From Escherichia coli (lineage in GTDB: Bacteria; Pseudomonadota; Gammaproteobacteria; Enterobacterales; Enterobacteriaceae): a stretch of DNA of 64,000 nucleotides. A program made the position numbers and the translations under genes. Location of the stretch: assembly GCF_024700885.2 (NCBI RefSeq), contig NZ_CP117016.1; one strand, written 5' to 3'. This document shows, piece after piece, positions 1,963-47,672 of this stretch (position 1 is its first letter; the number at the start of each line of letters is the position of its first letter). Under the pieces are notes generated by a model. It saw only the letters and a program-made list of their open reading frames with translations. It searched no databases and was not told the DNA's origin.

Positions 1963-1964
1963 TC

Positions 1965-2525: not shown

Positions 2526-2739
2526 GATATCTGGTTCCTGGACATCTAAAAATCATGCGTCATATCACACAATTTGCATTATGAATAACCATAACAATAT
2601 AACTCAGTTATTGCTACCCAAGCCCAGTATTTAAATAACTATACTATCAATGCGTAAGACCACATTAATGCTCCGCTGAAGAAGAGAAGCACTATACTCT
2701 GCAGTGCCTTTAGAAAATTATTCTCCAAAAGATGGAATA

Positions 2740-4107: not shown

Positions 4108-4161
4108 CGGCAGATTCGGTGTTGCTGTATTAAATCATGATTAACAGTGACGAAAAGAACA

Positions 4162-4470
4162 TCAGTGTGATACCGGTACCCGGGAAAGGTATTCCACCGC
4201 GCGGATAATTGCCGGTGTCACATCCCACCGCCGTTTCAGAACCGGCAACAGCTCATTAAGGTTTCTGATATAACGCTCAGTGAACAGCCGTTGTCCGTCC
4301 CTGGTTAAATGAAAACCTGACTGATTACAGGTAATGGTGATATGACAGGTATCGTTGCCAATATATACGGCTTCCTGGGGTCTGAATCTGACATTCCAGT
4401 ACCAGGAATACGGGGAATGATTAAGATGAAAAAGACGCATCTGAATGTCACTGAATAATGGATTCATCAT
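4162..4470 (-). CDS. hypothetical small protein (~102 aa)
   Basis: ORF track 4162..4572 overlaps the helicase 3' end; internal ATG pair (complement of 4465-4470, MMNPLF...) is the likely start; no clear Shine-Dalgarno. Confidence 0.3.
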   Translation of the reverse strand: MMNPLFSDIQMRLFHLNHSPYSWYWNVRFRPQEAVYIGNDTCHITITCNQSGFHLTRDGQRLFTERYIRNLNELLPVLKRRWDVTPAIIRAVEYLSRVPVSH

Positions 4471-4531
4471 AAATAAAATACACCTGATAATAAAATATAG
4501 TGGAAAACCAGAATAAAGAAATGGTCCGGTA

Positions 4532-6319
<1,788 letters not shown>

Positions 6320-6512
6320 AAACGCACCTTAATCTGTGAACAAAAAAATAATCACCACCGACATCCACGGATGTTATATCGTGGGTATCGCTTTATTCAG
6401 AAATAAAAAACAGAATCATTAACATGACCAGAATACTGTGAACCATGCTGCAGGGTATCTGCAGATATCCCTTCTGTTATATCCGGCCGGGGTAAAATCA
6501 GAACACTGACTG

Positions 6513-7757: not shown

Positions 7758-7912
7758 GACTTTCCTTTATTTTCCTTCTCAGTAACTGAATATCTTTGAT
7801 TAACGCCCTCCGGAAATATTTATACCCGGAAGGTTGTCCGGCTTTATGATGCCAGCCACTACAGGATTAACTGCAGGCTGAGCACAGATTCCTCTGCTAT
7901 TTCAGTGTCAGA

Positions 7913-8326
7913 TTAATACTGATTACCGGAACAAATGGGCAGATGCGTAAATCCGGGTTTGCTGGCCATATAAAGCGGCGCACAGGTAGGGTTGCGGGGT
8001 TCAGTGACCGGCACAGCCTCATTTTTCTCAGCCACCGACGGTTGTGACACCTTCCGGACAGCCGCTGATTTTTCCTTCTGAACCGGCTTCGTGGTGACCG
8101 GTGATTTCACCTGACGTTTGCCGGGTGCCACGCCATAACCAGAACAAAGGCGCTTCGACTGACTCAGACTTCCGTCATTGCAGACAAAACGTCCGTCTGA
8201 CGTACAGTGTGAAATACCACCTTTAGCACCCGAGCAGGGTTTTCTTCCCCGCGCAGCATCTGCCTGAACCGAAAATAAAAGCCCCACGAACAGAAAAAAG
8301 ATAATTTTCTTCATTTTAAAACTCAT
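7913..8326 (-). CDS. hypothetical secreted Cys-containing protein with signal peptide
   Basis: MKKIIFFLFVGLLFSVQADA signal-peptide-like N-terminus (from second Met); several Cys residues; AT-rich start. Confidence 0.45.
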   Translation of the reverse strand: MSFKMKKIIFFLFVGLLFSVQADAARGRKPCSGAKGGISHCTSDGRFVCNDGSLSQSKRLCSGYGVAPGKRQVKSPVTTKPVQKEKSAAVRKVSQPSVAEKNEAVPVTEPRNPTCAPLYMASKPGFTHLPICSGNQY

Positions 8327-8470
8327 ACATTGTTATTGCTGATATGCCCGAGTTATCAGGATGATGAAACATTCAGCCAGCGTTGTCATAAGCCAGAATA
8401 ATGTCACATTCACACCTGACATATATCCATCGCTGTTTATTTATTTCTGTTCTGCCCTCCCTGCTCCGGC

Positions 8471-8905
8471 TCACGTCTGCACGTAGCGCTGCTGTTTCAG
8501 ATGGCGCAACAACACCCTGCCCTCCGGTATAAATGTTGTTCCGTAACGAACCAGCCCGGCATCTTTAAGTTCTGCATCAATGACATAATGCAACTCACCA
8601 GGCTGAGTCTGTTCCTGCATCGTCACGTCGACGCGCTTAATACGTGGCTCATACTTCAGCAGAACGTCTGAAAGCACGCGCATCAGTTGATGCGCCGTCC
8701 CCGGCATTCCCTGCAGAATGGTTGTTATATCCGGCAGACCATAATCCGGAAGATGCTTAAGGCTTCCGGCACGGGTATTCAGAATACGCTGCATGTTATC
8801 GAGCACCGAAAGAATAACCTGCTCTTCCTCACCGACCTGGTTTAACTCCAGCCCGCCAGTGAAATTGCCATAGAGAATTTCATAAAGGGAAGGACGCGGC
8901 ATCAC
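8471..8905 (-). CDS. tssE: T6SS baseplate subunit TssE (gp25-like)
   Basis: 144-aa protein MMPRPSLYEILYGNFTGG... with GPW/gp25-like pattern; abuts tssJ. Confidence 0.8.
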   Translation of the reverse strand: MMPRPSLYEILYGNFTGGLELNQVGEEEQVILSVLDNMQRILNTRAGSLKHLPDYGLPDITTILQGMPGTAHQLMRVLSDVLLKYEPRIKRVDVTMQEQTQPGELHYVIDAELKDAGLVRYGTTFIPEGRVLLRHLKQQRYVQT

Positions 8906-9441
8906 TATTTATCCTTCACCGGTAACAGGGTCAGGGTGTTACCGGATACTTCAATAAGACGGGGCGTGTCCGGCTCAAGCTCATCCCGGCCCAGCACCAC
9001 CCGCCAGGTATTTTTCTTCTGGTCAGGCTCCAGAAACATTGCTGCCACACCGGTAAATTTCGCCGCATCATCCAGAGGCATATCCACGGCTACTGAACCA
9101 CCTGGCTGCAGCCATACATCTTTCTGTGCAATGATATCGCCTGCCAGAATTTCATTGTCCCCTGTAAAAAGCGCCTGATAATCCGCACTGTCAAAACTCC
9201 GGTTGTCTTTAAGCTGATAAATCCGCACCACAACCGACAGGGGAATACCGGCAGCACTGGTGTTAATGGCCTCCCTGGCACGAATATCCAGGTGAAGTGT
9301 TTTTATCTGTCGGTAAAACAGGGATTTCGTGGCAGATACCGTACCGTCTGCCACTCTTTGCGTCAGACCGCATCCTGATAACGACAGGGAAAACAACGCA
9401 ATAATCAGACCGTAACCAGCCTTACCAGCGATAATCGCCAT
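8905..9441 (-). CDS. tssJ: T6SS outer-membrane lipoprotein TssJ
   Basis: Lipobox LSLSGCG after signal peptide; 178 aa; position between tssG and tssE. Confidence 0.8.
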   Translation of the reverse strand: MAIIAGKAGYGLIIALFSLSLSGCGLTQRVADGTVSATKSLFYRQIKTLHLDIRAREAINTSAAGIPLSVVVRIYQLKDNRSFDSADYQALFTGDNEILAGDIIAQKDVWLQPGGSVAVDMPLDDAAKFTGVAAMFLEPDQKKNTWRVVLGRDELEPDTPRLIEVSGNTLTLLPVKDK

Positions 9442-10522
9442 TTTCCTGAGTCTCCTTACGTTGATAATGTTCCTGAACCCGCTGATAACGCCCCAGACTG
9501 ATGGTCATGACGCGTGCCGCTGAAGTCGCTATCTTTGCCTGTGTTCTCATTACTGCCGTGCGCCCCAGTTGCGGACTACCGGCTGCCGGTCGGCAACTGA
9601 GCCGGGCATCCGGTAACAGTGAACGCTCAACACAAAGTTGCAGACGTACATCCAGACGGCTTCCCAGATAAACATGCAACAACGCCAACAAATCAGAATA
9701 CAGATGCCCGCCTGGTAACCAGCCCTGTACCTCGCTGCCCGTCTGTGTTGAAAGCTGTAATAACACCTGTCCGTTCACATCCGTGGCATGATCGCCCATC
9801 ACCGGGCGACTCTTCAGACTGACCGGTTGATGAACACGCATGGTCAGCGGTGTTTTCAGCGGGATCCGTCGTCGGTCATGATGCCAGACACGGGCCTGTG
9901 TTCCGGGAGCCAGCAGCGTTACCAGTGATGTCAGCCCTTCAGCTGTTCTTCCGGGTAACAACATCAGGGGCAATAACGCCAGAAAACGCGATACCGGCGT
10001 GGCAATATTCTGTGCACATCCGGGGATCCCCAGTCTGGCCAGACCGAGCAGATACTGGGATGTTTTATCCTGTCCTCCCGCCTCAAAGGTGGCCGGGTAC
10101 GAATATTTACGCCAGATACGGTAATACTGGGTGATCAGACGATGACTGAATATATCGAGAAAATCCGCTGCGGCCTCATGGCCTTCCCGCTGCTGTGCAA
10201 TATCACTGATATAGTGTGCCGGCAACGGAGACGTGACCCCGTAAAGTCCCATAAACGTCACATGTACAATGGGTGGCAGATGGGATTCTTCAGGAATTAC
10301 AGCGTCTTTTATTTCACTCGCAGGAAACCCCATTCCCGGGTATGGACAAAAGCGAACCGCTTCCTGACGGGCCTGCCAGCCACTGCCAATGGGAGGCTGG
10401 TCTGGCTGGCTTTGTTCCAGCAACTGACAGAAGCGGTAAAAATTAATATACGGAAGCTGTTTCCGGTAACGGGTAATTAACCGGGCAGGCGCGGATTGTG
10501 ATTTTCTTTCCACCGGATGCAT
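9422..10522 (-). CDS. tssG: T6SS baseplate subunit TssG
   Basis: 366-aa ORF overlapping tssF stop; typical TssG size and position directly after tssF. Confidence 0.75.
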   Translation of the reverse strand: MHPVERKSQSAPARLITRYRKQLPYINFYRFCQLLEQSQPDQPPIGSGWQARQEAVRFCPYPGMGFPASEIKDAVIPEESHLPPIVHVTFMGLYGVTSPLPAHYISDIAQQREGHEAAADFLDIFSHRLITQYYRIWRKYSYPATFEAGGQDKTSQYLLGLARLGIPGCAQNIATPVSRFLALLPLMLLPGRTAEGLTSLVTLLAPGTQARVWHHDRRRIPLKTPLTMRVHQPVSLKSRPVMGDHATDVNGQVLLQLSTQTGSEVQGWLPGGHLYSDLLALLHVYLGSRLDVRLQLCVERSLLPDARLSCRPAAGSPQLGRTAVMRTQAKIATSAARVMTISLGRYQRVQEHYQRKETQENGDYRW

Positions 10523-31068: not shown

Positions 31069-32403
31069 GTCCGCAGCACCGCAAAAAGTTCCAGTTTCAC
31101 ATCTCCCAGCGATGCCGGGGTGTAGAAAGTACAACGCCCCGCGTCCAGCATCGCCCGGGCCGCATCCGTACTTAAATCCAGCGCGAAATACTGGTTTTCC
31201 AGCCGGAGCGGAATGGCCGCCGGTACATGCGTAACCGGACGGATAATGACCCCGCTCAGCGCCACATTCACCACCTCAGACACATCATCGGGGCTCCCGG
31301 CTTTGCATAGCTGCGGAAACTTCGTCTGCAGTTCATGCCCGGGCATGGAAGAGCGCACTGAAAGCCAGAAATCAGCCCCTTCGCGCAGACGCGCATCATG
31401 TAATGCCCCCTCCCACATCACACCCTTTTGTTTCAGTTCAATGAAAACCACACGGGAAGGCAGGCTTGCCTCCAGCAGCCGGTTCAGCAAAGAAAGCAAT
31501 GGTGGGAAAACATTTTCAGGTGTTTCATGATGGTATGCCGGAACCGCATCCACATTATGCTCAAGCGAGAATGTGAGCAGGGAGCCTGCCAGCCGGGCAA
31601 GCTCCCTGTACAACAGTTCCGGGTGGCGGTAAGGCATGTCAAGCAACTCTTTCAGAACAGGCTCCGCACTGTTCAGGGCATTCAGCAACCAGAACAACGA
31701 CACGTCCGCCACAGCAAAATCCGCAAGACGGGCATTGTTCTCCCGACGCATGGACATCAGTCGCTGGCGACGCGCCTGCAGGTGATGAAGCAACTCCGCA
31801 AGTTCAGTCATCAGCGAAGGACTGGCAGACAGCGTCAGCAGAGGGGGAATAAAACGCGGGTCCCTGCACCACTGTCCCTGTGCATCACGAACAAGACGGG
31901 TAACGGGACAGGTCAGCCAGGCAGCATTTTCCTGATGAGCCATGCGCAGAGTCAGGTTATGCCGCAATACCGCCACTTCGCTTTGCTCATGCCCGGCCAG
32001 CTCCTGCACATTCACCCTTTCTGATTTCCAGCGACGCGGACGCTCGCTCTCACTGCCATTATCAATGGTTGCCACCGTTAGCATTCAGTAACGGTAGTGC
32101 CAGCACAATATCCACCAGGGAACGATCAGAAACCGTCGATAAATCACAGACCGGAGGCAGATTATCCGCGCGTTCCGTATCAATAAGCGTTCCGTCCGGG
32201 AAACGAACAATCAGACGGGTGGCATTCAACCGTGAAAGCGGTAACAGAGAGTCATCAAACTCTGCAGCCACCACGCCCCATGGATGCGCCAGCCCCATTC
32301 TGGCAACGCTGTCTGCCAGATGAACATCCCAGGCAGCCTGCTGCTGAAACTGCTGGGGCATCAGAAAAGCCCCGTCTTCCCATAGTGGGCGATAAATCTT
32401 CAT
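31065..32403 (-). pseudogene. tssK: T6SS baseplate subunit TssK, reading frame broken near 32062-32084 (frameshift)
   Basis: N-terminal 113-aa ORF (MKIYRPLWEDGAFLMPQQFQQQ..., ends 32062) and C-terminal 339-aa ORF (from 32084) are in different frames and overlap by 23 nt; together they equal a normal TssK length. Confidence 0.6.
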
Positions 32404-33984: not shown

Positions 33985-34482
33985 TCACGCCTTTTCCGGC
34001 ACCAGTGCACGCAGTTCATCACGCAGCGTCTGACTCAGTGCCGGGTCACGCAGAATTTTTTCCAGCTCTTTACGGAAAGTCACGTTATCCAGCAGATTGG
34101 CTTTCAGGTCCCGCAGAAGGCTACGCATGGCCAGCATGGCTTTAAGACGGGGAATCTGTCGGGCGACCTGCTCTGGCGTGAAATCGTTCATATTGCGGAA
34201 AGTCAGGCTGATGCTCTCTTCAGAGCCATCACCGGCAAGCGTGTTCTCCACATTCAGATGTACAGACGGGGAGATATCTGCCAGAACATCATTAAAATTG
34301 TTTTTATTAATATCCGTTTTTACACGCTCTGACAGTGGACGCTCTTCCTGTCCGTTACTGAAATCACCGGCAACCAGAAGTTTGAGCGGAAGCTCCACTT
34401 TCTTCTGCCCACCACCCGTATGTAGGTCTAATTTCAGATTTACCCTTGCTTTCGGGATTTCATTCTGAAACGAACTGCTCAT
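33985..34482 (-). CDS. tssB: T6SS sheath small subunit TssB (VipA)
   Basis: From internal Met: MSSSFQNEIPKARVNLKLDLHTGGGQKKVELPLKLLVAGDF..., VipA-like; first gene of the minus-strand operon. Confidence 0.8.
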   Translation of the reverse strand: MSSSFQNEIPKARVNLKLDLHTGGGQKKVELPLKLLVAGDFSNGQEERPLSERVKTDINKNNFNDVLADISPSVHLNVENTLAGDGSEESISLTFRNMNDFTPEQVARQIPRLKAMLAMRSLLRDLKANLLDNVTFRKELEKILRDPALSQTLRDELRALVPEKA

Positions 34483-34506
34483 GGCTCTCTCCTGTGAAAC
34501 CTGCAT

Positions 34507-34988
34507 CTAAGGGGTTCCATCACCGCAGATGCCTCCCCTTGTGCACTGATTTAATTTTGATCATTATAGGACGAAGATCTGAAAAATCTCAATATGACAG
34601 ATACATCGATCGATATAACGCAAATAATCAGGACTTTATTCTATGGAATGTCGCAAAATAATGAATATTCAAAGCTTATAACCATTGTTAATGTAAAAAT
34701 ACAGAAAATTATTCCACAAAACACTTTTGATACAGCCAGTTAACATAAACACTGTATTTTCTTGATTTCAGTCATTGAAAATCACAATGAGTAAAGTTTC
34801 AGCAGCATTGACGTGATTTCTGGAAAGCGGGAAAGATATGGAGGAAGGGCCCAACAAAATGCAATGAAAGAAGGAGTGAGGGGATTTCTAGTAAAAACAG
34901 AAGATTAACAAAACACATCAGGAGGCAGAGACTCCTGATTCAGTGCTACCACATGAAAATTTAGTTAACTGTTACCGTTCTGAAATCT
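34507..34988 (-). promoter_or_regulatory. AT-rich control region upstream of tssB (T6SS promoter region), divergent from a small plus-strand ORF
   Basis: ~480 bp without ORFs, very AT-rich, directly upstream of the first T6SS gene; no specific promoter elements assigned. Confidence 0.4.
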
Positions 34989-35180
34989 ATGTCAGAAGAT
35001 ATTCCATTACCGAAAATCAATCAGCGATACAGAGACGATCATGGTGCGCTTGTCACCGTGACCAGTGTTGAGGAAACCCGGGTGGTGTTTATGCGGGACG
35101 GCTATCCGCATCCCTGCATGCGACCGATGTACAACTTCCTGGGAAAATTCAAACCCGAACCCCGGGAAGAAACAGAATAA
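34989..35180 (+). CDS. hypothetical small protein (63 aa)
   Basis: ORF track only; no recognisable motif; weak ribosome-binding site. Confidence 0.3.
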   Translation: MSEDIPLPKINQRYRDDHGALVTVTSVEETRVVFMRDGYPHPCMRPMYNFLGKFKPEPREETE

Positions 35181-35232
35181 AACGAAATCCCTGCCGGCAA
35201 TCACATTGCCTGATGGCAGCATAATCCACTTA

Positions 35233-35466
35233 TTAATTCTCATCCCCGGAGACAAGCCCTGAAAACCACTCCGGGTGTTCACTGTATGCTGTGTTCAGCG
35301 CATCCCAGGAAACGTTGATATAAAAGCTGTCCTGCAATTTCCGGGTAACCACCTCTGCCAGGCGGTTCCGGTTACCCACCAGTCCGGCATAACCTCTCTC
35401 TGCCAGCCACTCATTCAGTTCATGTTCCAGAGACAGATTGATAATATCGTAATCGGACCTTGCCAT
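35233..35466 (-). CDS. hypothetical small protein (~77 aa from internal Met MARSDYD)
   Basis: ORF track 35233..35541; likely start at internal ATG. Confidence 0.3.
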   Translation of the reverse strand: MARSDYDIINLSLEHELNEWLAERGYAGLVGNRNRLAEVVTRKLQDSFYINVSWDALNTAYSEHPEWFSGLVSGDEN

Positions 35467-35561
35467 TCCCGTTTCCTTAGCACATGTTTTCAGGCACGGG
35501 GATAAAGTATAAAGAATGTCGTACTGCTGCTGCCAGAGCAATATTCCCCCTGATGGTTGTA

Positions 35562-36221
35562 TCAGAGATGGTATGCCGGTACTTTGCGGGTTGTTCCTGT
35601 CAGGTTATCGTGCACCTCCACGGTCGTGGTCACCACCGGCATTCCGGCCTTTCTCAGCCTCAGAACATCAGCCGCAATACGCTGACTGCCAAACCAGAAC
35701 AGGCCGTCCAGTGCAGTCACCAGTAAACCCGCCTCCAGTGCATACTTCAGCCGTTCACGGGGCGCTTTCACTTCCCGGGCAACCTGCTGATATGGCAATG
35801 ATGTGTTTTCATTCCCAACCACGCGACGAATACGATGAGACAGATGATACCGGAATGTATCCGGCACACCAGAAAGGCTGGCCTTCAGGCTGTACACGCA
35901 GCCAAACCGTTTATCGTTAAACACCACATTTTTCTGGCTGATTCCCCATTCTTCACGCAGCGCAGCAATCAGTTGTGGTGTACGGGTAAGCAACAAGCGA
36001 AAAGGCAGTTCAAAACTGGTGACGTAATCCACATTCAGCAGTGCAATACGCAGCCGTTCTTCTGGCCCGGCCTCTGTCTGCCGGCACTCCTCCAGAACAT
36101 CCTGCCACTGCTGGCGAAGACGGGGCGATTCGTTCCGTTCTGTAAAACAGTATTTATCCGCCAGATAGTCAATTTGTGTACGCATACTGAAGAGCATTCC
36201 GTATAAAGATTCAGCTGACAA
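35562..36221 (-). CDS. hypothetical protein, 219 aa (prophage-like)
   Basis: ORF track; no motif recognised. Confidence 0.4.
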   Translation of the reverse strand: MSAESLYGMLFSMRTQIDYLADKYCFTERNESPRLRQQWQDVLEECRQTEAGPEERLRIALLNVDYVTSFELPFRLLLTRTPQLIAALREEWGISQKNVVFNDKRFGCVYSLKASLSGVPDTFRYHLSHRIRRVVGNENTSLPYQQVAREVKAPRERLKYALEAGLLVTALDGLFWFGSQRIAADVLRLRKAGMPVVTTTVEVHDNLTGTTRKVPAYHL

Positions 36222-36493
36222 AACTTTATCAGTCCATAAGAATCAACGGAAGCACCGATGGTTCACCTGGTCATCACCAAGTTTTGCCATAACCGGTAGC
36301 AATGATCATTCTGTGTAACTATTTGCCCGCAGATGATGATGTTTATCGATGTCTCCCCTGTCTGAATGTCGCATAAAGAGGATCATCAGCAGACACAGCC
36401 AGTGAGCCACCGTCCGCGGAACAAAGCGCCGGACCACATCCGGATCCGGCAGGGGCATGACTGGCATGATCAAGTAATTATGTCGCATCTCCC

Positions 36494-36967
36494 TCACTCC
36501 TGGTCCCGGAGCAAATCTGGCTGGTATCTGTAAACATACTTCGTACATGCCGCTCTGCAATAAATCCCCGTGCCACAGGCTTCACAGAACTTTTTCCCGG
36601 AAAAATGCTGCCCGCACATCACACAATGCCACTCCAGCACGACAGGTAATGGCGATAAAAACATCGCCATATCATCAATGTAAGGATGGGATTTTTCCGG
36701 ATTCAGCACCACGCAGGCCGCCTTCTGTTGCGCGCTCAGGGCATGTAAATCGTGCTCAAACCACGCCCCCTGAGCATCTGTCTGCAAAATCAACCGGCCA
36801 CGACAGGAAAGACAGAAACAATGCCGGATATTTCTGCTGAGCGCAGAATCGGCACTGATAATGTGCTCACCCGGCGTGATCCCAGCCCCGTTTTTATACC
36901 GTTCATTCTGCAACCACCTCCTCACTGAAGCGCCCTGTATGACAGTGTGTGCAGTACTGCTCCCCAT
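36494..36967 (-). CDS. Cys-rich zinc-ribbon-like protein, module copy 2 (start uncertain; may be fused to upstream ORF by frameshift)
   Basis: Contains CxxC...WFEH...WHCxxC...CxxC arrangement paralleling the upstream ORF; 5' end overlaps upstream ORF in another frame. Confidence 0.35.
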   Translation of the reverse strand: MGSSTAHTVIQGASVRRWLQNERYKNGAGITPGEHIISADSALSRNIRHCFCLSCRGRLILQTDAQGAWFEHDLHALSAQQKAACVVLNPEKSHPYIDDMAMFLSPLPVVLEWHCVMCGQHFSGKKFCEACGTGIYCRAACTKYVYRYQPDLLRDQE

Positions 36968-37292
36968 AATAATCGTGGTGACATTGTCTGCAGTGCCAGC
37001 TGGCTTTACGCACTACGGGTAAGGCGTTCGGTACGAATTGCCGTAAGCGTTTAATCAACAGTATTTCTCTGCGCTCCGGTCTGACATAAGGGCACTCATG
37101 ACCATGCTCAGTCAGCCCGTCGTCAGTGTGTTCAAACCAGGGACGTTCAGTGTCGTATTGCGGGTGGTATCTGAGAGCACTGCCACAGAGGTGGCAGGTG
37201 TAACGATCGTATGGCGCTGTCTGTGCGGTACGGGCGCCGGTCAGACGTCCGTTGCCATCAAGTGCGAGAAAGGATTTTGCGTACATCGTCAT
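36903..37292 (-). CDS. Cys-rich zinc-ribbon-like protein, module copy 1 (129 aa)
   Basis: TCHLCGSALRY...PWFEHTDD...WHCRQCHHDYYGEQYCTHC motif pairs. Confidence 0.4.
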   Translation of the reverse strand: MTMYAKSFLALDGNGRLTGARTAQTAPYDRYTCHLCGSALRYHPQYDTERPWFEHTDDGLTEHGHECPYVRPERREILLIKRLRQFVPNALPVVRKASWHCRQCHHDYYGEQYCTHCHTGRFSEEVVAE

Positions 37293-37453
37293 ATTCCTCA
37301 GCCGCCAGACGACACGCAGGCAACAGCCGTCCCGGTACGGGCAGCGTGGTCAGGGTGTGAATGGCGGTTTTCAGTTCAGTCTCAGAAGGGAAAATCAGTG
37401 TGGTCGCTGTGAACACGTCATCACACTAAGGTCAGATAAGTCGTCTGTCGGGC

Positions 37454-38098
37454 TCAGCCACGACTGCAGCCAAAGTTGCGCTCACCGGTGCCGTAAGCTT
37501 TGGTACTCTCCTTCGCCAGATAGTCAGCACGCTCCAGCACCTGCTGAAAGCCGGTGTCATCATCGCGTTCCAGCCACACCGCCGGCCTGACCGGAAAATG
37601 CGCCAGCGTGGTATGATCTCCGGTATCCACTCCCAGGGCACTGCACCACGCCTGTTTAATCATCCCGGCCAGTGATCCCGGAGCGCGGTAATCGCCGGCA
37701 CGACACCAGGTATCCCGGTTGACCAGCAGCATCAGGTGATAGTGTTTTTTACCTTTGCACTCCCCAAACTCCCGGGCCCAGACGTAATGCAGGGTTGTGG
37801 GATGCACGCGTTTGCCTTCACGGCGCTTACGCTTCTGATAAGCATCGATTCGGGCTTTCAGGGCATTGATGAAGCGGGATATCACTGCTGCGTCAGTTGC
37901 TGCCGGTACATCCGGGAGACGCAGGTCAATCCGCAATGCCGTCAGACGGGGATGAACATCCAGTGCGCGCAGCACCGTCTCACGGATACGTTGTTGCCAG
38001 AAGGGGTTGTATTTGTAGGTCATGGTTAAATCTCCGTATGGTTCATACGGAATAGCCACGTCGTAAAAAATGCGCAGAGTCCCTGAAGTGACCTCCAA
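37454..38098 (-). CDS. prophage protein, possibly inovirus Gp2 / YagK-YfjJ family
   Basis: ORF track; ...RLTALRIDLRLPD... segment resembles the YagK/YfjJ family from memory; start may be internal Met (MTYKYNPF). Confidence 0.35.
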   Translation of the reverse strand: MEVTSGTLRIFYDVAIPYEPYGDLTMTYKYNPFWQQRIRETVLRALDVHPRLTALRIDLRLPDVPAATDAAVISRFINALKARIDAYQKRKRREGKRVHPTTLHYVWAREFGECKGKKHYHLMLLVNRDTWCRAGDYRAPGSLAGMIKQAWCSALGVDTGDHTTLAHFPVRPAVWLERDDDTGFQQVLERADYLAKESTKAYGTGERNFGCSRG

Positions 38099-38218
38099 CC
38101 GGGCAATATCTCAGGCACTCTGTGATAACCCGATTGTCGTCTCCGGACTGACGGTTGAATTTTCAGCGTTGTTTTTTTAATGTAAAAAACCGGTTACGGG
38201 TAAGGCTGTGAGGAGGGA

Positions 38219-38422
38219 GTGATGGTGATACGCAAAAAGAAGTGCAGGGACTGTGGAAACGCGATTACTCATAATACTGTGTATTGCCCGTATTGTGGTT
38301 CTGTCGACCCCTTCGGCTATTACCGGAATACAGACCGTATCGTTACCATACTGCTGGCACTGATTATTGTGGTCCTGCTGACTACTGTCAGCGTCAGTGT
38401 GTATATACTGTGTAGCTGGTGA
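38219..38422 (+). CDS. small zinc-ribbon membrane protein (67 aa)
   Basis: Strong SD (GAGGAGGG) upstream; CRDCGN...YCPYCGS zinc ribbon followed by one TM helix (IVTILLALIIVVLLTTVSVSVYIL). Confidence 0.5.
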   Translation: MMVIRKKKCRDCGNAITHNTVYCPYCGSVDPFGYYRNTDRIVTILLALIIVVLLTTVSVSVYILCSW

Positions 38423-39648
38423 GATAACGGTTCATGTATCCCCTGAGCTGACAGTGTACCGGTTATATTAAGCGTAACCGACAGGTTCTCCTTCATACCA
38501 TATTAAATTTTTCCAGGTATTGCCGCTGCCTTATTTCGTCCCATACAGGAAAACTCGTCTGGGTTTCTGACAAATACGTGAAACTCACAGCCCCTCAATA
38601 TCAACCACACGCTGTAAGCCGGTAATACCTGAAAATCAGCCTATTACCGCCCACGCCTCCGGCACTATTCCCTTTTGATTTCGAATTCTTTGTTGTCGCT
38701 ATACCGTGTAACATCACCGATACCACACACCGGCACAGATAACACCGGACTTATCGTAGCGCTGCTTCAATATTCAGGTGACATATTTCCAGACGGAAGC
38801 CGGCACGCGATCGTAAAATTTGCGGTCAGTTCTGCCAGCCGGTTGTCAACGGCAGAGTTAAAGGCTTCCAGCTCCGCAAGGGTAAGTTTATAACGCGTGT
38901 GGGAATTCACTTTTCCCGCGTCTCCTGACGTATTACGGGCTGCCACTTACCTGGTGTCCCGCAATACAGCCTTAGTGTTCCGTTATCGGGGATCCGGACG
39001 CACCGCAACAACCGGGGAAGTATTTCTGGTTAGAGCTGTGTCAAGAGGGATTTCTCAGCCCCTCACTCACCGGCTCAGTTTCAGGGCAGGAGCATTAATA
39101 CGCTCAGTTCATGTCTTATACAGGAATGGGCATAGGGGGAGCTGGCGTGTCACTGCTGATTTTACGCATCAGCGTTCATGTATTTGCACTCTGATACAGA
39201 ATGCTTCACAGCGCTCTGTTACCGGAGAGATTTACTCTCTTAGGTTATTCTGGCAAATCCTTTACGTTACTCTCTGATAACTTCTTATATTTATAATACC
39301 AATCAGACAGCCTTATCCCACCAGTGATACCTGTCCCGGCCCACAAGGCACGGGCTGCCCCACCGTAACTGCCCCGTAAATAACTCTGCAATTATCAGAA
39401 CGCCAGTTTTCCCCTCTTCCTCACGAAAATCATCCCTTCTTTATCGCGCGCGCGTGCGGAAGCATCGTTTCGTAACAACCACCCGGCATACCGGTACGGC
39501 TCAGCCACCGTAACCTCCCCGTTTATCTCCTGGCGGTCACATTCCCGATTATTTTTTACGTTTCTCCCCGGTTGTTATGCCGGTGAAGGTGGTGCGTTGT
39601 TTTCATGACCACACCGGCTGGTTTAACAACATCCGGAGGAACATTCTC

Positions 39649-39855
39649 ATGATCACCCCAGTTTCACTGATGGATGACCAGATGGTCGACATGGCATTTA
39701 TCACTCAACTGACCGGCCTGACCGATAAGTGGTTTTACAAACTCATCAAGGATGGTGACTTTCCTGCGCCCATCAAAATGGGCCGCAGCTCCCGATGGCT
39801 GAAAAGCGAAGTGGAAGCCTGGCTGCAGGCGCGTATTGCACAGTCCCGTCCGTAA
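39649..39855 (+). CDS. alpA: AlpA-family prophage transcriptional regulator
   Basis: From internal Met: MITPVSLMDDQMVDMAFITQLTGLTDKWFYKLIKDGDFPAPIKMGRSSRWLKSEVEAWLQARI, AlpA-type HTH pattern. Confidence 0.65.
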   Translation: MITPVSLMDDQMVDMAFITQLTGLTDKWFYKLIKDGDFPAPIKMGRSSRWLKSEVEAWLQARIAQSRP

Positions 39856-39936
39856 TTCTTAACCGTTCATCTGCAACAGACGCAGTCTCCGGCCTGCCGG
39901 CGGCGTTCTGCTGCCTGTTATCCCCCGTGAGGAATA

Positions 39937-40544
39937 TGAAAATGAAACCACAGTATCAGACCCGTTACGAGCTGCTCCACGAAAGCTACCAGAAATGGCT
40001 GACCGGCTTCACCCGGCACGCCGTATCCTGGGGCGTGTGTCATCCGAATATCTACTACTTCCATAATCTGACGCCCGGGTGGGTGTCATTCAATGGTGAA
40101 AAACCGGAGATTGCCATCGTACCCCAGAGTCTGCACCGGCTGATTTATGGTCCGGACAAACGGACCACGCCGCCCCTGGATGATGATCTGATAGTGAATT
40201 TATGCACCAGTGAACATCTGCTGGTTCATCATCCGATGCTGGAAGGCATTCTCCTGTCTGAATGTGAACGTCTGAGGCAGCGTTCGCTGGCAAATAAACT
40301 GATCAGCCTCTTCCGTCAGTTTGGTGGCACGGAGTTGCGCCTCAAACTGGTCTGGCTTTGCTGGCTTGATTTAATGACCGGAAACTGCCTTGACGACTGG
40401 ACGGAGAATCTGAAACGGAAATCAGAAAAAGAGCTGGAGGAATGGATCATCAACCGTCAGAAGCAGAGCGCAGCACTGACGGATCTGATGGATCAGTACG
40501 TGCTCCTGGCATACCGCACAACGGTTGACGATAAGCGCACCTGA
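39937..40544 (+). CDS. hypothetical prophage protein (~202 aa)
   Basis: ORF track 39795..40544; likely start MKMKPQYQ preceded by GAGGAA. Confidence 0.4.
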
Positions 40545-40865
40545 TGCCAGTTGTTTCAGGGAAGCTGGTATCCGGGCAGGGTGCCAGGGCTGACTGAACG
40601 GCCTGTCTGTCTGCCGTTTCGCTCTCCGTGCGTTCTGTCACACGCTGCACCTGAACGCCGGACTGCGGGCACGCAGACAGGAAAGTCGCAGGCTGGAACT
40701 TCTGACCGGCGGGTATCAGTTATATGCCTGTTGATTCATCACCACCACGCAGCTCCTGAGCTTTAGTTCATCACCGATATTCATACATCTGAATATCGGT
40801 GATGAAATCCCCATAATAATCAATCATCTAAGTCTGAAGCATAATGGAGAAAAACTGCTCACCGG

Positions 40866-42350
40866 TTACTTCGCTCTCAGCTTATTGTAGTGATAACCCG
40901 AGGTAAAAATACCAGAGACATCAGACAACTTTAAACTGGCTATCTGGGGAAGCAGAACATACATGGTTTTTCCTTCCGGCACGACAGAAAGCCTGAACTG
41001 AGATTCAAGAATGTTCAGCAATGCGTTCAGTTTTTTCCTGTTTCTGAACCGACCCGGGCCACACTGGAGAATATAATTTTTCCTGACACGGGGTGGGCAT
41101 TCTCCGCGGCACTCCTCAATGAGCCAGTCGAACAGCTCCTCGGCGTCCTTCTGCTGCAGTTCAGATTCATCAGGTAACGCAAATAATTTTTTATATTCAT
41201 CTGTGTACCACGAACTTATTACGACAGCAGACGTCATGATATCGGCAGAGATTTTCCCTTCACCATAGTTGAAATACTGAAATAACGCTGCAATTCTTGC
41301 AATGTTTTCTGTTTTTTTTGAAACATGTCCCCGAAACGGGCTTAAGGGTCCGGAAGGGGATAAATCCTGCTCCAGAACATTATAGTGCTCAATAAATATT
41401 TTTTGCGCTTCAGGCGAAAAATGCAGACAATACCGTTCATCCTCACTGGATTTTTCAATACTGCCTCTGGCCAGTTCCATTAATCGTTCATGAAATGCCG
41501 TTAATGATCCTCCCGGAATCACAGCTCCGTTAATAAAGCGTTTCCCCTGCGTGGTTGCAGGTTTACTGATAAGACAACGGGCAAGAAAACCACTGTCCCT
41601 GGCAACAGAACCTTTTCGCTCCATATATCGGTCAAAAAGACCGGGTTGCACCATGAGGGATAACGTCATTCTGGCATTTTCAATCATCTGTTCGGGTTCA
41701 TTCTTTCTGTCCACAGACAATACAGAGCCATCCCACATTTTGTTAATAAAAGGCAACTCAGACAGGGTATATCCATCAAATATAATACCGGCTTCATCTG
41801 ACATAATACCCACTGAACGCCATTTACCATAAAGCTGATTCTTAATTGCCGCAGTCGTGGCATCATTAAAAATGAATTTATACCTCACAGGTTCTTCCGC
41901 ACTGTTTTTCTGAAGTACTTCCAGTTGTCTGAGGGTTTCTGACTCATCCGCGCCTTTGCGGAGTTCTTTATTCAGTTTTGACAACAATGCTTTTTTCTGA
42001 GCCTTTAAAAGCTCTTCCTTGTTTTTCCAGACAGCCAGTTCACTTTTGTATCTGGAATATAACTGCATCTCCTGCTGGTACAGGGGCTTCATTAATAATT
42101 TGTCCACTGCGGTTTTTCGTTCTCCGGACTCGGCAAGCGTCAGGAAAAAAAGAGAGACCGGCCCCCGCAGTGTATTCAGTCTGCAGACATCAATCAGATT
42201 CTGGCAGACAAGTGAAACAGCGCCCAGGGCAGACGCTGCCACAAGCCCAAGGGGAGCCTGCGTAATTTGCTGAGCTTCAATAACGGCATCACGAATGAGT
42301 GGAGGCAGCGAACTCAGGGGAAACTCATCACAAGGCTGACCGAATGACAT
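40866..42350 (-). CDS. hypothetical prophage protein, possibly DUF3987 (YfjI-like)
   Basis: ORF track 40866..42419; likely start MSFGQPCDEF; family assignment from memory only. Confidence 0.4.
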   Translation of the reverse strand: MSFGQPCDEFPLSSLPPLIRDAVIEAQQITQAPLGLVAASALGAVSLVCQNLIDVCRLNTLRGPVSLFFLTLAESGERKTAVDKLLMKPLYQQEMQLYSRYKSELAVWKNKEELLKAQKKALLSKLNKELRKGADESETLRQLEVLQKNSAEEPVRYKFIFNDATTAAIKNQLYGKWRSVGIMSDEAGIIFDGYTLSELPFINKMWDGSVLSVDRKNEPEQMIENARMTLSLMVQPGLFDRYMERKGSVARDSGFLARCLISKPATTQGKRFINGAVIPGGSLTAFHERLMELARGSIEKSSEDERYCLHFSPEAQKIFIEHYNVLEQDLSPSGPLSPFRGHVSKKTENIARIAALFQYFNYGEGKISADIMTSAVVISSWYTDEYKKLFALPDESELQQKDAEELFDWLIEECRGECPPRVRKNYILQCGPGRFRNRKKLNALLNILESQFRLSVVPEGKTMYVLLPQIASLKLSDVSGIFTSGYHYNKLRAK

Positions 42351-43580
42351 AGTAACCTCACTACACACAGATATAAAAGCACTGCAATTCTGGCTATTAA
42401 TAGCAAAAATAGCAGTCAAATCAATATGAGGTAAAAATTTTTGTTGATTTAATGGTTAAATAATAACCACAGTGTGTTTTGCTGCTGAAGAAAGACAAAA
42501 TGAATCTGTGTGTCCCCTCCTTCCCTTCAGAGCACATCCACTATTCAAATTTTACACAACCACGTACGAACAAAAAGCATCATCCCGGGTATTGCAGATA
42601 CCGGTTTCCTGCCGGGATGAATCATAAACAGAACACCGGGAATAACGCCTTCAGGAATCCCCCCCCTCCTGAAGAAGAATAAAATAAAGAAGACTACATT
42701 TCCTGCACTGTATGCTGAGTACAATATTCTATGGACAGGATGACATATTTATAAATAACAAAAACCATTTAATACTGATACATCAATAAAATACTTCCTC
42801 CCTGCTGACGCAGATAAAATGCACCATTTTTTCTTCAAATACTTCTGTATAATCGCCAGCCAATGATGAGAATGGATTAAAATAACACTTCTTCGACAAA
42901 CACAAAAACAGCCTTCATTTTACATCATCATCCAGTTTCAGTTAACCCCGGACGAGCAACAGCGTTTCAGTACAGGAATTAAAAGCCAGCTTTTGCTCAG
43001 TAAAAACACACTCAACTAATAATATCTCAGCAGATATTATCCTGACCAGGACACCTCACATTACTGAATTCTCTTCCGACAGTATCACTGCACAAATAAA
43101 AAAGAACGGGATAAATATTCAGACCGGAAGAATGGTGTCACAAAAGCATTTAATCATTACGCATGACCAGGAAGGGAAACACTTAACCACATGGTATCAA
43201 CAGATATCATTACGTGTGCACTCTTATAAAAAACACACAGAAGAAGTAAGATAATTATAAATGTAAATTTAATATCTCCCACTGACATCTCCCCCACAAT
43301 ACACTGAAAAATACTCACAGCAGTAAACACAGACACACCTGATAATCATGCAGCCGATAAATATTTTCCCCTTTACGGAGAAATCAGCCTGCTGTTTAAC
43401 AATAACGGCGTATTTTCATGGAAGGAGATCACCCAGTAACGGATAAGTCCTGATCTCCTTCATGTTAATACGCAACAATCCCATCGATTAAAAACAATTT
43501 CAGACAGATATTATCTCCGTGAATCCCCCGCCACCTTTCCGGTGCGCGGGATTTTGTCTTTTTTCACCGGGAATACATGT

Positions 43581-44453
43581 ATGAATCCGTCTGATGCCAT
43601 TGAGGCAATTGAAAAACCGCTCTCCTCCCTGCCTTACTCGCTTTCCCGTCACATCCTGGAACATCTGCGCAAACTCACCCGTCACGAACCCGTGATTGGC
43701 ATTATGGGTAAAAGCGGGGCCGGTAAATCCTCACTCTGTAATGCACTGTTTCAGGGGGAGGTCACCCCGGTCAGTGATGTTCACGCCGGCACCCGGGAAG
43801 TACGGCGCTTCCGTCTGAGTGGCCACGGTCACAGCATGGTTATCACTGACCTGCCCGGGGTGGGCGAGAGCCGGGACAGGGATGCAGAGTATGAGGCCCT
43901 GTACCGTGACATTCTGCCTGAACTTGACCTGGTACTGTGGCTGATTAAAGCCGATGACCGTGCCCTGTCTGTGGATGAGTATTTCTGGCGACACATCCTG
44001 CACCGGGGACATCAGCGGGTACTGTTTGTGGTGACGCAGGCCGACAAAACGGAGCCCTGCCATGAATGGGATATGGCCGGTATTCAGCCTTCTCCTGCAC
44101 AGGCACAGAATATTCGCGAAAAAACGGAGGCGGTATTCCGTCTGTTCCGGCCCGTACATCCGGTTGTGGCCGTATCGGCCCGCACCGGCTGGGAACTGGA
44201 TACGCTGGTCAGTGCGCTCATGACAGCGCTTCCCGACCATGCCGCCAGTCCCCTGATGACCCGACTGCAGGACGAGCTGCGCACGGAATCTGTCCGGTCT
44301 CAGGCCCGTGAACAGTTTACCGGTGCGGTGGACCGGATATTTGACACGGCGGAGAGCGTCTGTATTGCCTCTGTTGCACGCACGGTTCTGCGTGCCGTCC
44401 GTGACTCGGTGGTCTCTGTTGCCCGCGCTGTATGGAACTGGATTTTCTTCTGA
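43581..44453 (+). CDS. yeeP: CP4-type prophage GTPase (YeeP/YkfA/YfjP family)
   Basis: P-loop GIMGKSGAGKSSLCNALF; DLPG switch motif; precedes flu as in CP4-44. Confidence 0.75.
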   Translation: MNPSDAIEAIEKPLSSLPYSLSRHILEHLRKLTRHEPVIGIMGKSGAGKSSLCNALFQGEVTPVSDVHAGTREVRRFRLSGHGHSMVITDLPGVGESRDRDAEYEALYRDILPELDLVLWLIKADDRALSVDEYFWRHILHRGHQRVLFVVTQADKTEPCHEWDMAGIQPSPAQAQNIREKTEAVFRLFRPVHPVVAVSARTGWELDTLVSALMTALPDHAASPLMTRLQDELRTESVRSQAREQFTGAVDRIFDTAESVCIASVARTVLRAVRDSVVSVARAVWNWIFF

Positions 44454-44572
44454 ACACTCTGCCAGGGGAAATGCCTGATTATATTGCATTAACAAACTGA
44501 AAACATGACACAAACCCCTCATACTCCTCCTGTTTCTCTTGCGTGACCGCCTTGTCGTTAATAGAATAAAAC

Positions 44573-44608
44573 GATCGATAAAACAGGTATCGATCGCTAC
44601 TATCGATC
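44573..44608. promoter_or_regulatory. three closely spaced GATC sites: Dam/OxyR phase-variation switch of flu (agn43)
   Basis: GATC at 44573-44576, 44592-44595, 44605-44608, ~220 bp upstream of the Ag43 start. Confidence 0.7.
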
Positions 44609-44825
44609 GTTTATAGTGGTTAATGGCCTGCGAAAAGGCAGCTGAATCTCTTCATCATGCAGAACGGAATTGCACACAACGGACTGATACTTCTCTGGCG
44701 GATGAGAGAGGGGAAGCATTTATGTCCGGGAAAAACCACTTTATCTGACCATGCTGTTTTGTACCTGCCGGTATCCACATTTGTGGGTACCGGCTTTTTT
44801 ATTCACCCTCTGTAAGGAAAAGCTG

Positions 44826-47672
44826 ATGAAACGACATCTGAACACCAGCTACAGGCTGGTATGGAATCACATTACGGGTACCCTGGTGGTGGCCTCCGAA
44901 CTGGCCCGCTCACGGGGAAAACGCGCCGGTGTGGCGATTGCGCTGTCTCTTGCTGCTGTCACATCAGTCCCGGCACTGGCTGCTGACACGGTTGTACAGG
45001 CGGGAGAAACCGTGAGCGGCGGAACACTGACAAATCATGACAACCAGATTGTTCTCGGTACGGCCAACGGAATGACCATCAGTACCGGTCTGGAGTATGG
45101 GCCGGATAACGAGGCCAATACCGGCGGGCAATGGGTACAGGATGGCGGCACAGCCAGTAATACCGCCATCAGCAGCGGCGGTCTCCAGTTTGTAGGTGCC
45201 GGGGGAAAGGCTACAGACACAATAATCAATGAAGGAGGCGGACAAAGTCTGAAGGGACTGGCACTGAACACCACGCTGAATGGTGGCGAGCAGTGGATGC
45301 ATGAGGGTGCGATAGCCACAGGAACCGTCATTAATGATAAGGGCTGGCAGGTCGTCAAATCCGGCGCAATGGCAACCGACACGGTTGTGAATACCGGCGC
45401 GGAAGGGGGACCGGATGCAGAAAATGGTGATACCGGGCAGTTTGTTCGCGGAAATGCCGTACGTACCACCATCAATAAAAATGGTCGTCAGATTGTGGCT
45501 GCTGAAGGAACAGCAAATACCACTATGGTTTATGCCGGCGGAGACCAGACTGTACATGGCTACGCGCTGGATACCACACTGAACGGCGGTAACCAGTATG
45601 TGCACAACGGCGGTACAGCGTCTGACACTGTTGTTAACAGTGACGGCTGGCAGGTGGTGAAGGATGGTGCAGTGGCTGAGAATACCACCGTTAATCACAA
45701 GGGCAAACTGCAGGTGAATGCCGGTGGTGTCGCTGTTGATGTTACTCAGAATCAGGGAGGGGCACTGGTTACCAGTACTGCTGCAACGGTTCTTGGCAGC
45801 AACCGTCTGGGCAATTTCGCGGTGGAAAACGGTAAGGCTGACGGCGTGGTTCTGGAATCCGGTGGTCGCCTGGATGTACTGGAGAGCCATTCAGCACAGA
45901 ATACCCTGGTGGATGACGGCGGTACCCTGGCAGTGTCTGCCGGTGGTAAGGCAACAGGTGTCACCATGACATCCGGTGGTGCCCTGATAGCAGACAGTGG
46001 TGCCACTGTTGAGGGTACCAATGCCAGCGGCAAGTTCAGTATTGATGGCATATCCGGTCAGGCCAGCGGCCTGCTGCTGGAAAATGGCGGCAGCTTTACG
46101 GTCAATGCCGGGGGACAAGCCAGCAACACCACGATCGGACATCGTGGAACACTGACGCTGGCTGCCGGGGGAAGTCTGAGTGGCAGAACACAACTCAGTA
46201 AAGGCGCCAGTATGGTACTGAATGGTGATGTGGTCAGTACCGGCGATATTGTTAACGCAGGGGAGATTCGCTTTGATAATCAGACGACACAGGATGCCGT
46301 GCTGAGCCGTGCTGTTGCAAAAGGCGACGCCCCGGTAACGTTCCATAAACTGACCACCAATAACCTCACCGGCCAGGGCGGCACCATCAATATGCGTGTT
46401 CGCCTTGATGGCAGCAATGCCTCTGACCAGCTGGTGATTAATGGTGGTCAGGCAACCGGCAAAACCTGGCTTGCGTTTACAAATGTCGGAAACAGTAACC
46501 TCGGGGTGGCAACCACCGGACAGGGTATCCGGGTTGTGGATGCACAGAATGGTGCCACCACAGAAGAAGGTGCATTTGCCCTGAGCCGCCCGCTTCAGGC
46601 CGGCGCCTTTAACTACACCCTGAACCGTGACAGCGATGAAGACTGGTACCTGCGCAGTGAAAATGCTTATCGTGCTGAAGTCCCCCTGTATGCCTCCATG
46701 CTGACACAGGCAATGGACTATGACCGGATTCTGGCAGGCTCCCGCAGCCATCAGACCGGTGTAAACGGTGAAAATAACAGCGTCCGTCTCAGCATTCAGG
46801 GCGGTCATCTCGGTCACGATAACAACGGCGGTATTGCCCGTGGAGCCACGCCGGAAAGCAGCGGCAGCTATGGCTTCGTCCGTCTGGAGGGTGACCTGCT
46901 CAGAACAGAGGTCGCCGGTATGTCTGTGACCGCGGGGGTATATGGTGCTGCTGGCCATTCTTCCGTTGATGTTAAGGATGATGACGGTTCCCGCGCCGGC
47001 ACGGTCCGGGATGATGCCGGCAGCCTGGGCGGATACCTGAATCTGGTACACACGTCCTCCGGCCTGTGGGCTGACATTGTGGCACAGGGAACCCGCCACA
47101 GCATGAAAGCGTCATCGGACAATAACAACTTCCGCGCCCGGGGCCGGGGCTGGCTGGGCTCACTGGAAACCGGTCTGCCCTTCAGTATCACTGACAACCT
47201 GATGCTGGAGCCACAACTGCAGTACACCTGGCAGGGGCTCTCCCTGGATGACGGCCAGGATAACGCCGGTTATGTGAAGTTCGGGCATGGCAGTACACAA
47301 CATGTGCGTGCCGGCTTCCGTCTGGGCAGCCACAACGATATGACCTTTGGCGAAGGCACCTCATCCCGTGACACCCTGCGCGACAGTACAAAACACCGTG
47401 TGAGTGAACTGCCGGTGAACTGGTGGGTACAGCCTTCTGTTATCCGCACTTTCAGCTCCCGGGGTGACATGAGCATGGGTACAGCCGCCGCCAGCAGTAA
47501 CATGACGTTCTCACCGTCCCGGAATGGCACGTCACTGGACCTGCAGGCCGGACTGGAAGCCCGTGTCCGGGAAAATATCACCCTGGGCGTTCAGGCCGGT
47601 TATGCCCACAGCGTCAGCGGCAGCAGCGCTGAAGGCTATAACGGTCAGGCCACGCTGAGTGTGACCTTCTGA
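44826..47672 (+). CDS. flu: antigen 43 self-associating autotransporter adhesin
   Basis: MKRHLNTSYRLVWNHITGTLVVASELARSRGKRAGVAIALSLAAVTSVPALAADTVV... extended signal peptide, beta-helix repeats, C-terminal beta-barrel. Confidence 0.9.
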   Translation: MKRHLNTSYRLVWNHITGTLVVASELARSRGKRAGVAIALSLAAVTSVPALAADTVVQAGETVSGGTLTNHDNQIVLGTANGMTISTGLEYGPDNEANTGGQWVQDGGTASNTAISSGGLQFVGAGGKATDTIINEGGGQSLKGLALNTTLNGGEQWMHEGAIATGTVINDKGWQVVKSGAMATDTVVNTGAEGGPDAENGDTGQFVRGNAVRTTINKNGRQIVAAEGTANTTMVYAGGDQTVHGYALDTTLNGGNQYVHNGGTASDTVVNSDGWQVVKDGAVAENTTVNHKGKLQVNAGGVAVDVTQNQGGALVTSTAATVLGSNRLGNFAVENGKADGVVLESGGRLDVLESHSAQNTLVDDGGTLAVSAGGKATGVTMTSGGALIADSGATVEGTNASGKFSIDGISGQASGLLLENGGSFTVNAGGQASNTTIGHRGTLTLAAGGSLSGRTQLSKGASMVLNGDVVSTGDIVNAGEIRFDNQTTQDAVLSRAVAKGDAPVTFHKLTTNNLTGQGGTINMRVRLDGSNASDQLVINGGQATGKTWLAFTNVGNSNLGVATTGQGIRVVDAQNGATTEEGAFALSRPLQAGAFNYTLNRDSDEDWYLRSENAYRAEVPLYASMLTQAMDYDRILAGSRSHQTGVNGENNSVRLSIQGGHLGHDNNGGIARGATPESSGSYGFVRLEGDLLRTEVAGMSVTAGVYGAAGHSSVDVKDDDGSRAGTVRDDAGSLGGYLNLVHTSSGLWADIVAQGTRHSMKASSDNNNFRARGRGWLGSLETGLPFSITDNLMLEPQLQYTWQGLSLDDGQDNAGYVKFGHGSTQHVRAGFRLGSHNDMTFGEGTSSRDTLRDSTKHRVSELPVNWWVQPSVIRTFSSRGDMSMGTAAASSNMTFSPSRNGTSLDLQAGLEARVRENITLGVQAGYAHSVSGSSAEGYNGQATLSVTF

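Follow-up and report, generated by a model that had tools for sequence, protein, structure and literature searches.

The locus described here raises the question whether three GATC sites upstream of an Ag43-type gene in a 64,000-nucleotide stretch of Escherichia coli DNA (the whole stretch is referred to as the window) belong to an intact phase-variation switch of the kind that controls agn43 (flu) in strain K-12. In K-12, OxyR binds to the unmethylated site, represses transcription and shields the GATC sites from Dam, while OxyR cannot bind once the site is methylated; replication lets Dam and OxyR compete anew, and mutation of dam fixes the OFF state whereas mutation of oxyR fixes the ON state (PMC13337833, PMC4872104, PMC3764049, PMC2909390). 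The switch is a textbook one and already known, since the conservation of the GATC sites across agn43 allele groups has been published: the EAEC 042 genome paper, citing a 2008 review on Ag43, describes three similarly spaced GATC sites in both allele groups, with Dam/OxyR phase variation as the inference drawn (PMC2808357). Judged by its sequence, the agn43/flu regulatory region of the window is very probably complete and homologous to the Dam/OxyR switch of K-12. The OxyR binding, methylation states, start site and switching discussed below we infer from the work on K-12 and on the gtr and opvAB systems. Neither dam nor oxyR lies within the window; both genes belong to the core genome of E. 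coli.

Position and spacing of the GATC sites

Three GATC sites do lie inside 36 bp, as the first-pass annotation of this DNA had claimed. GATC-I is found at 44573-44576 (no strand assigned; the sequence is in register with K-12), GATC-II 19 bp further on at 44592-44595, and GATC-III another 13 bp on at 44605-44608. The ATG of the Ag43 gene at 44826 is 253 nt from GATC-I, and 217 nt separate it from GATC-III, so the distance of about 220 bp upstream of the start that had been given is right for the proximal edge of the triplet.

By count alone the triplet is not above chance. The window contains 137 GATC sites in 64 kb, and random placement of this number yielded on average 0.30 groups of three sites inside 36 bp for a window of this kind, with at least one such group in 26% of the trials. 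A second cluster of three is in fact present at 62755-62790 (36 bp, with spacings of 24 and 8) within a 339-aa open reading frame (62431-63450, + strand), showing that clusters of this sort arise by chance in the window. Since the count is not significant, the case for the triplet rests on its register and on its conservation. The window has no second instance of the 19/13-bp spacing, and between 43456 and 46132 the triplet accounts for all GATC sites.

Promoter and predicted OxyR half-sites

The promoter was placed by homology with K-12. A putative -35 hexamer TTGCGT (44539-44544, + strand), which agrees with TTGACA at 3 of 6 positions and is in register with TTGTCC of K-12, is separated by 17 nt from the -10 hexamer TAGAAT (44562-44567, + strand), which has the same sequence and position as in K-12. 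GATC-I follows directly downstream of the -10 box in the arrangement TAGAAT-aaaac-GATC, again the same as in K-12. The G of GATC-I (44573) corresponds to the K-12 transcription start reportedly placed there by Wallecha et al. 2002, and a match to the Rfam IS102 family described below begins at 44571, 2 nt upstream of this G. A generic sigma-70 promoter scan of the region reported no promoter, because the -35 hexamer falls short of its threshold.

Half-sites for OxyR were scored against the published consensus ATAGnTnnnAnCTAT, which has 10 consensus positions (PMC2909390). Predicted half-site 1, ATAGAATAAAACGAT (44561-44575), lies over the -10 box and GATC-I, and predicted half-site 2, ATCGCTACTATCGAT (44593-44607), takes in both GATC-II and GATC-III, 13 bp apart; each matches 8 of the 10 positions, neither has a strand assigned, and their centres are 32 bp apart. 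A score of 8/10 is reached at 13 positions in the whole window, and half-sites 1 and 2 form the sole pair in the 64 kb where both partners score at least 8/10 at an offset of 22 or 32 bp (sum 16, next best 13). Thus, an OxyR-like sequence covers the GATC sites in the 32-bp register, but the predicted half-site for the 22-bp register found in K-12 reaches only 2/10. Positions 13-15 (+1) of half-site 1 are taken up by GATC-I and those of half-site 2 by GATC-III, which overlaps the right recognition element there; GATC-II is found at the mirror position of half-site 2, overlapping the left recognition element. The mirror position of half-site 1 is taken by ATAG, which overlaps the -10 box, and this would account for a set of three methylatable elements instead of four. 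A distance of 32 bp between half-sites is canonical for reduced OxyR in opvAB (PMC4856963), and in gtr the half-site spacing is likewise consistent with the reduced form, and the half-sites contain GATC pairs 13 bp apart (PMC2909390).

The triplet is accordingly not misaligned relative to the OxyR site and the promoter, since two half-sites with 8/10 overlap the -10 box and all three GATC sites. With the 19/13 spacing, the -10 box and GATC-I found as in K-12, and the predicted half-sites lying over the GATC sites, the reading as a Dam/OxyR switch gains support. The description of the switch as intact holds for the sequence elements, their register and the complete gene downstream, which is to say at the level of sequence.

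In the proposed mechanism a sigma-70 promoter (-35 TTGCGT, 17 nt, -10 TAGAAT) would most likely start transcription at or beside the G of GATC-I. An OxyR tetramer would occupy 44561-44575 and 44593-44607 in the extended mode typical of reduced OxyR, with centres 32 bp apart, and since the protein would then lie across the -10 box, the transcription start and the first 35 transcribed nucleotides, it would repress the promoter (OFF). The three GATC sites would each overlap one of four 4-bp recognition elements, the fourth being the ATAG in the -10 box, and Dam methylation of the GATC adenines would block the binding of OxyR and give the ON state. Because methylation would block OxyR and bound OxyR would block Dam, either state should be inherited until replication reopens the competition. 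Transcripts made in the ON state would cross a leader of 253 nt with a terminator-like hairpin at its end and then an intact gene for an Ag43-type adhesin of 948 aa.

Comparison with K-12 agn43 and other known systems

The comparison with the K-12 agn43 regulatory region that had been proposed as a check was made as an ungapped alignment anchored on GATC-I (the K-12 GATC sites are at 1345, 1364 and 1377 of the K-12 locus L001), and it showed the promoter and the GATC spacing to be in register. It replaced a MAFFT alignment in which a gap of 13 nt inside the switch had shifted GATC-II out of place; a megablast match to K-12 begins only at the leader hairpin. The two regions have TAATAGAATAAAACGATC in common, comprising the -10 box, the discriminator and GATC-I, as well as GATC spacings of 19 and 13 bp, the TTG of the -35 box at a 17-nt spacer, and two predicted OxyR half-sites in the 32-bp register. 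The terminator hairpin of the leader is conserved between them as well, and so are the Shine-Dalgarno sequence and the start codon. In both cases an Ag43-family gene is found downstream and a GTPase gene upstream, in a CP4-44-like island, although the K-12 counterpart of the upstream gene is a pseudogene annotated as a partial GTPase family protein.

The regulatory region of the window does not, however, simply duplicate its K-12 counterpart. The spacer between GATC-I and GATC-II is GATAAAACAGGTAT in the window and AATATCTATTTTAT in K-12, and the CTAT element of the K-12 spacer is absent from the window. The contiguous half-site of the 22-bp register, ACGATCAATATCTAT with 6/10 in K-12, corresponds to the ACGATCGATAAAACA that scored 2/10 in the window. 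Four bases differ in the spacer between GATC-II and GATC-III, the -35 hexamers are TTGCGT and TTGTCC, respectively, and the leader is 253 nt long in the window compared to 222 nt in K-12, the 31 additional nucleotides being accompanied by a middle part that is mostly unalignable. The encoded protein has 948 residues in the window, as against 1039 aa for K-12 Ag43.

The cah gene of O157:H7 has the same long type of regulatory region, with a GATC-I/II spacer and GATC positions identical to those of the window. What sets cah and other Ag43/Cah alleles apart from the window is a small number of base changes, found between GATC-II and GATC-III, where they hit 'n' positions of the OxyR consensus, and in the sequence before the -35 box. 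The gtr and opvAB systems of Salmonella are similar to the window in having OxyR half-sites 32 bp apart with GATC sites inside them, and the GATC pairs of gtr are 13 bp apart, as are GATC-II and GATC-III here. They differ in having three or four half-sites, so that OxyR can sit in an activating or in a repressing position, whereas the window has a single predicted repressor site, which lies across the promoter and the transcription start. The genes under control are also unrelated.

Natural alleles

Metagenome contigs were searched with the leader hairpin and not with GATC, and the resulting sample is therefore unbiased for GATC. At least 120 hairpin stretches were found, and the matches listed included 119 usable metagenomic loci, mostly from gut E. 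coli; the same leader-hairpin scan gave no match in representative genomes. Exactly three GATC sites with the 19/13 spacing were present in 112 of the 119 loci among the matches listed, and one locus only of these 119 had any other GATC within 330 bp upstream of the hairpin. When the window, the K-12 locus, locus L002 and 117 metagenomic loci were scored for OxyR half-sites, half-site 1 had 8/10 and half-site 2 at least 7/10 in all 120 (among the matches listed).

The leaders fall into two natural classes, of 253 and 222 nt, which have both ends in common and an unalignable middle. Among the matches listed, 104 of the 120 loci belong to the long, window-like class and 16 to the short, K-12-like class, and in complete E. 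coli genomes, with a coverage of at least 80%, 3445 of 5426 had the long type and 1781 had the K-12 type, showing that the long regulatory type is the commoner one. The two types also differ in the 22-bp-register half-site, which scores 1-3/10 in 104 of 104 long-class loci and 5-6/10 in 16 of 16 K-12-type loci (among the matches listed).

Variation within the long class, judged from the 102 long-class loci listed, is low at the elements of the switch: the mean minor-allele frequency is 0.003-0.008 at GATC, -10, -35 and OxyR consensus positions and approximately 0.09 elsewhere, and a permutation against random sets of 12 positions gave P = 0.009 for the low variability of the GATC positions. 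In the same 102 loci polymorphism in half-site 2 falls almost wholly on the 'n' positions 5, 7, 8 and 9 of the consensus. Among the matches listed the -35 hexamer hardly varies in the long class and the -10 hexamer hardly varies across alleles, and the TCTCTTG of the -35 region is invariant in 78 distinct alleles. The early leader is also largely invariant in the long class, and since much of the leader is nearly invariant there, conservation lends support to the switch elements but is not exclusive to them. The half-site 2 variant of the window, with a C at position 5 (positions 5-9 of the half-site are 44597-44601), is a minor one, found in 5 of the 120 loci listed including the window and L002.

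In seven of the 119 loci among the matches listed one GATC has been lost by a point change, affecting GATC-II in L006, L019, L046 and L122, GATC-I in L015 and L090, and GATC-III in L088. The idea that such losses go together with decayed genes was rejected, as four of the five GATC-loss loci with complete open reading frames (among the matches listed) encode a full-length Ag43 of 948-1039 aa. Since these seven loci lack one GATC and mostly precede full-length genes, the full triplet appears to be dispensable; the loci may be natural switch variants with an altered ON/OFF bias, or they may reflect assembly errors in low-coverage contigs.

Leader RNA and flanking genes

Upstream of the promoter lies a gene for a GTPase family protein (43581-44453, + strand; Pfam MMR_HSR1, named after the RefSeq annotation of the identical sequence in strain MLI114), the stop codon of which is 86 bp before the -35 box. 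Downstream, the 5' leader of the Ag43 mRNA, of the long class, matches Rfam family RF00124 (IS102) at 44571-44807 (+ strand). From GATC-I to the terminator the leader matches the model end to end (positions 1-206 of 206) with 72.5 bits, above the gathering score of 46. K-12 scores 252.6 bits, the difference going along with approximately 100 nt in the middle of the window leader that are unalignable to the model. The z-score of the leader fold is -2.8.

The 5' helix of the model is the palindrome formed by GATC-II and GATC-III, and its 3' helix is an intrinsic-terminator-like hairpin identified by a terminator scan at 44767-44803 (+ strand), with a 12-bp stem and a 4-nt loop (together 44767-44794) followed by the T-run TTTTTTATT. 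Because these two elements are the helices of the model, the coordinates of the IS102 sRNA are those of the agn43 leader up to the hairpin, and they suggest that the IS102 'sRNA' is a prematurely terminated agn43 leader. IS102 RNA is presumably the same as IsrC of E. coli, and a 2014 study is said to have dealt with premature termination in the agn43 leader. The hairpin, which lies in a block conserved with K-12, ends 22 nt before the ATG, and a Shine-Dalgarno-like AAGGAA (44814-44819, + strand) is located 6 nt before the ATG, as in K-12. The gene itself (44826-47672, + strand) is an intact flu/agn43 allele whose product of 948 aa carries the Pfam domains ESPR, AIDA repeats, AC_1 autochaperone and Autotransporter beta-domain, and in the identical MLI114 genome RefSeq names it 'Ag43/Cah family autotransporter adhesin'.

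Alternative readings

Observations against the reading as a complete Dam/OxyR switch include the -35 box with half of the consensus bases, the silent generic scan, the natural loci with one GATC lost, the conservation of much of the leader outside the switch elements and the poor half-site in the 22-bp register. The last of these might indicate a homologous switch with a different behaviour, where loss of CTAT leaves OxyR only the extended, reduced-form mode, so that repression is weaker or dependent on oxidation and the ON/OFF bias is shifted or coupled to peroxide. The difference in 22-bp-register scores between the long class and the K-12 type fits such a reading, as do the reports that both oxidized and reduced OxyR bind K-12 agn43 (PMC2909390) and that the match of a half-site to the consensus is linked to the switching bias in opvAB (PMC4856963). 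If binding at agn43 depends on the 22-bp-register element, the allele type of the window would bind OxyR poorly. On the other hand the 32-bp register retains its two half-sites in full, published work found that agn43, gtr and opvAB undergo phase variation whatever the oxidation state of OxyR and also with the reduced mimic C199S (PMC2909390, PMC4856963), and the long type with its constrained elements is the one carried by 3445 of the complete genomes, and we therefore regard a changed behaviour as unlikely. The wider proposition that K-12 may not represent most natural agn43 alleles, with oxidized OxyR possibly binding the commonest type poorly, appears equally doubtful to us; if it were true, wild strains under peroxide stress could, in contrast to K-12, be relieved of repression or switch from OFF to ON more often.

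A role at the RNA level is also conceivable, where the CGAUCG repeats would fold into hairpins at the 5' end of the leader/IS102 RNA and these would control transcript stability or the read-through of the terminator, the Dam sites being incidental. The Rfam model does have a 9-bp helix made from the GATC-II/III palindrome, the minimum-free-energy fold pairs GATC-I with GATC-II and contains a second 5'-proximal hairpin, and a conserved terminator-like hairpin follows downstream; however, hairpins of this sort arise from any palindromic protein-binding site. The bases that vary belong to the loop of the hairpin and to 'n' positions of the OxyR consensus, a pattern compatible with both readings, and no compensatory changes were seen in the long-class loci listed, since the stems are invariant there. 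What makes an RNA-level role very improbable is that the exact GATC tetramers, beyond mere complementary stems, are kept in both leader classes, and that half-site 1 would not be part of the RNA, as it lies mostly upstream of the likely start site. The idea that the three GATC sites lie together by chance and play no part in regulation is scarcely credible at all, even with 0.30 clusters per window expected by count and one other cluster present. Their exact spacing is unique in the window and the same as in K-12, it recurs in the 112 of 119 loci (among the matches listed) across two divergent leader classes, and the triplet falls on the one strong pair of OxyR half-sites that the 64 kb contain; this conservation and the half-site pair effectively refute the chance reading.

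GATC distribution elsewhere in the window

The window as a whole has few GATC sites, the 137 observed comparing with 257 +/- 15 in shuffled sequences, and the depletion is specific since tetramers one base different from GATC are present in normal numbers. GATC is absent from four stretches (1900-9789, 12157-17802, 25223-32123 and 53398-58347) that are 5.0-7.9 kb long and for which base composition predicts 19-30 sites each. The first three cover segments of the type VI secretion cluster together with neighbouring nuclease genes, containing part of tssG, tssJ/E, a GIY-YIG nuclease and a 3'-5' exonuclease; tssM/tssA; and tssK/L, hcp and tssH, and they alternate with blocks of normal GATC density carrying tssF, vgrG and tle1/tli1. 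The fourth is the DUF905-to-CbtA module of the Ag43 island. An assembly artefact, which would have made the GATC sites themselves less trustworthy, was considered and rejected: over 2000-9700 the sequence agrees at 100% with that of an independent genome, and a homologue with 96% identity is GATC-free as well. CCGG is enriched in the window, with 661 occurrences versus 246 expected from dinucleotides. Compared with the MLI114 RefSeq record the window is 100% identical over 1-34504, and from approximately 34500 to 43000 it has one extra base (noted for the region 33999-43000; alignment of 26002 columns, 99.996%), which is an indel difference.

Another group of three GATC sites is found in 53 bp (34559-34611) upstream of tssB (- strand, start codon at 34482), 77-126 bp from the gene, and one of them directly abuts a perfect TATAAT (cctataatGATCaaaatt). 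The type VI cluster of the window carries Tle1-EAEC/Tli1-EAEC genes. The tssB-side group recalls the sci1 type VI secretion cluster of enteroaggregative E. coli, for which a Fur/Dam epigenetic switch has been described (PMC3145626); a search for the Fur-box consensus with up to 3 mismatches gave no match near the tssB group.

Implications for Ag43 phase variation

In the accessible literature we found K-12 data or general statements only and no experiment on the long-type regulatory region, and a search of methylome and UPEC literature likewise returned general statements about Ag43 and no regulatory-region data from outside K-12. Nor did we find it stated in the accessible literature that the majority type has half-sites in the 32-bp register only, without the central CTAT.

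Apart from a correct annotation of this particular genome the finding has little importance. Since the Ag43 copy is to be treated as phase-variable, expression, aggregation and biofilm phenotypes of the strain would depend on the ON/OFF state of the colony that was picked. For the family as a whole, the textbook K-12 sequence represents a minority regulatory type, and quantitative models of switching that are based on K-12 need checking on the long type.
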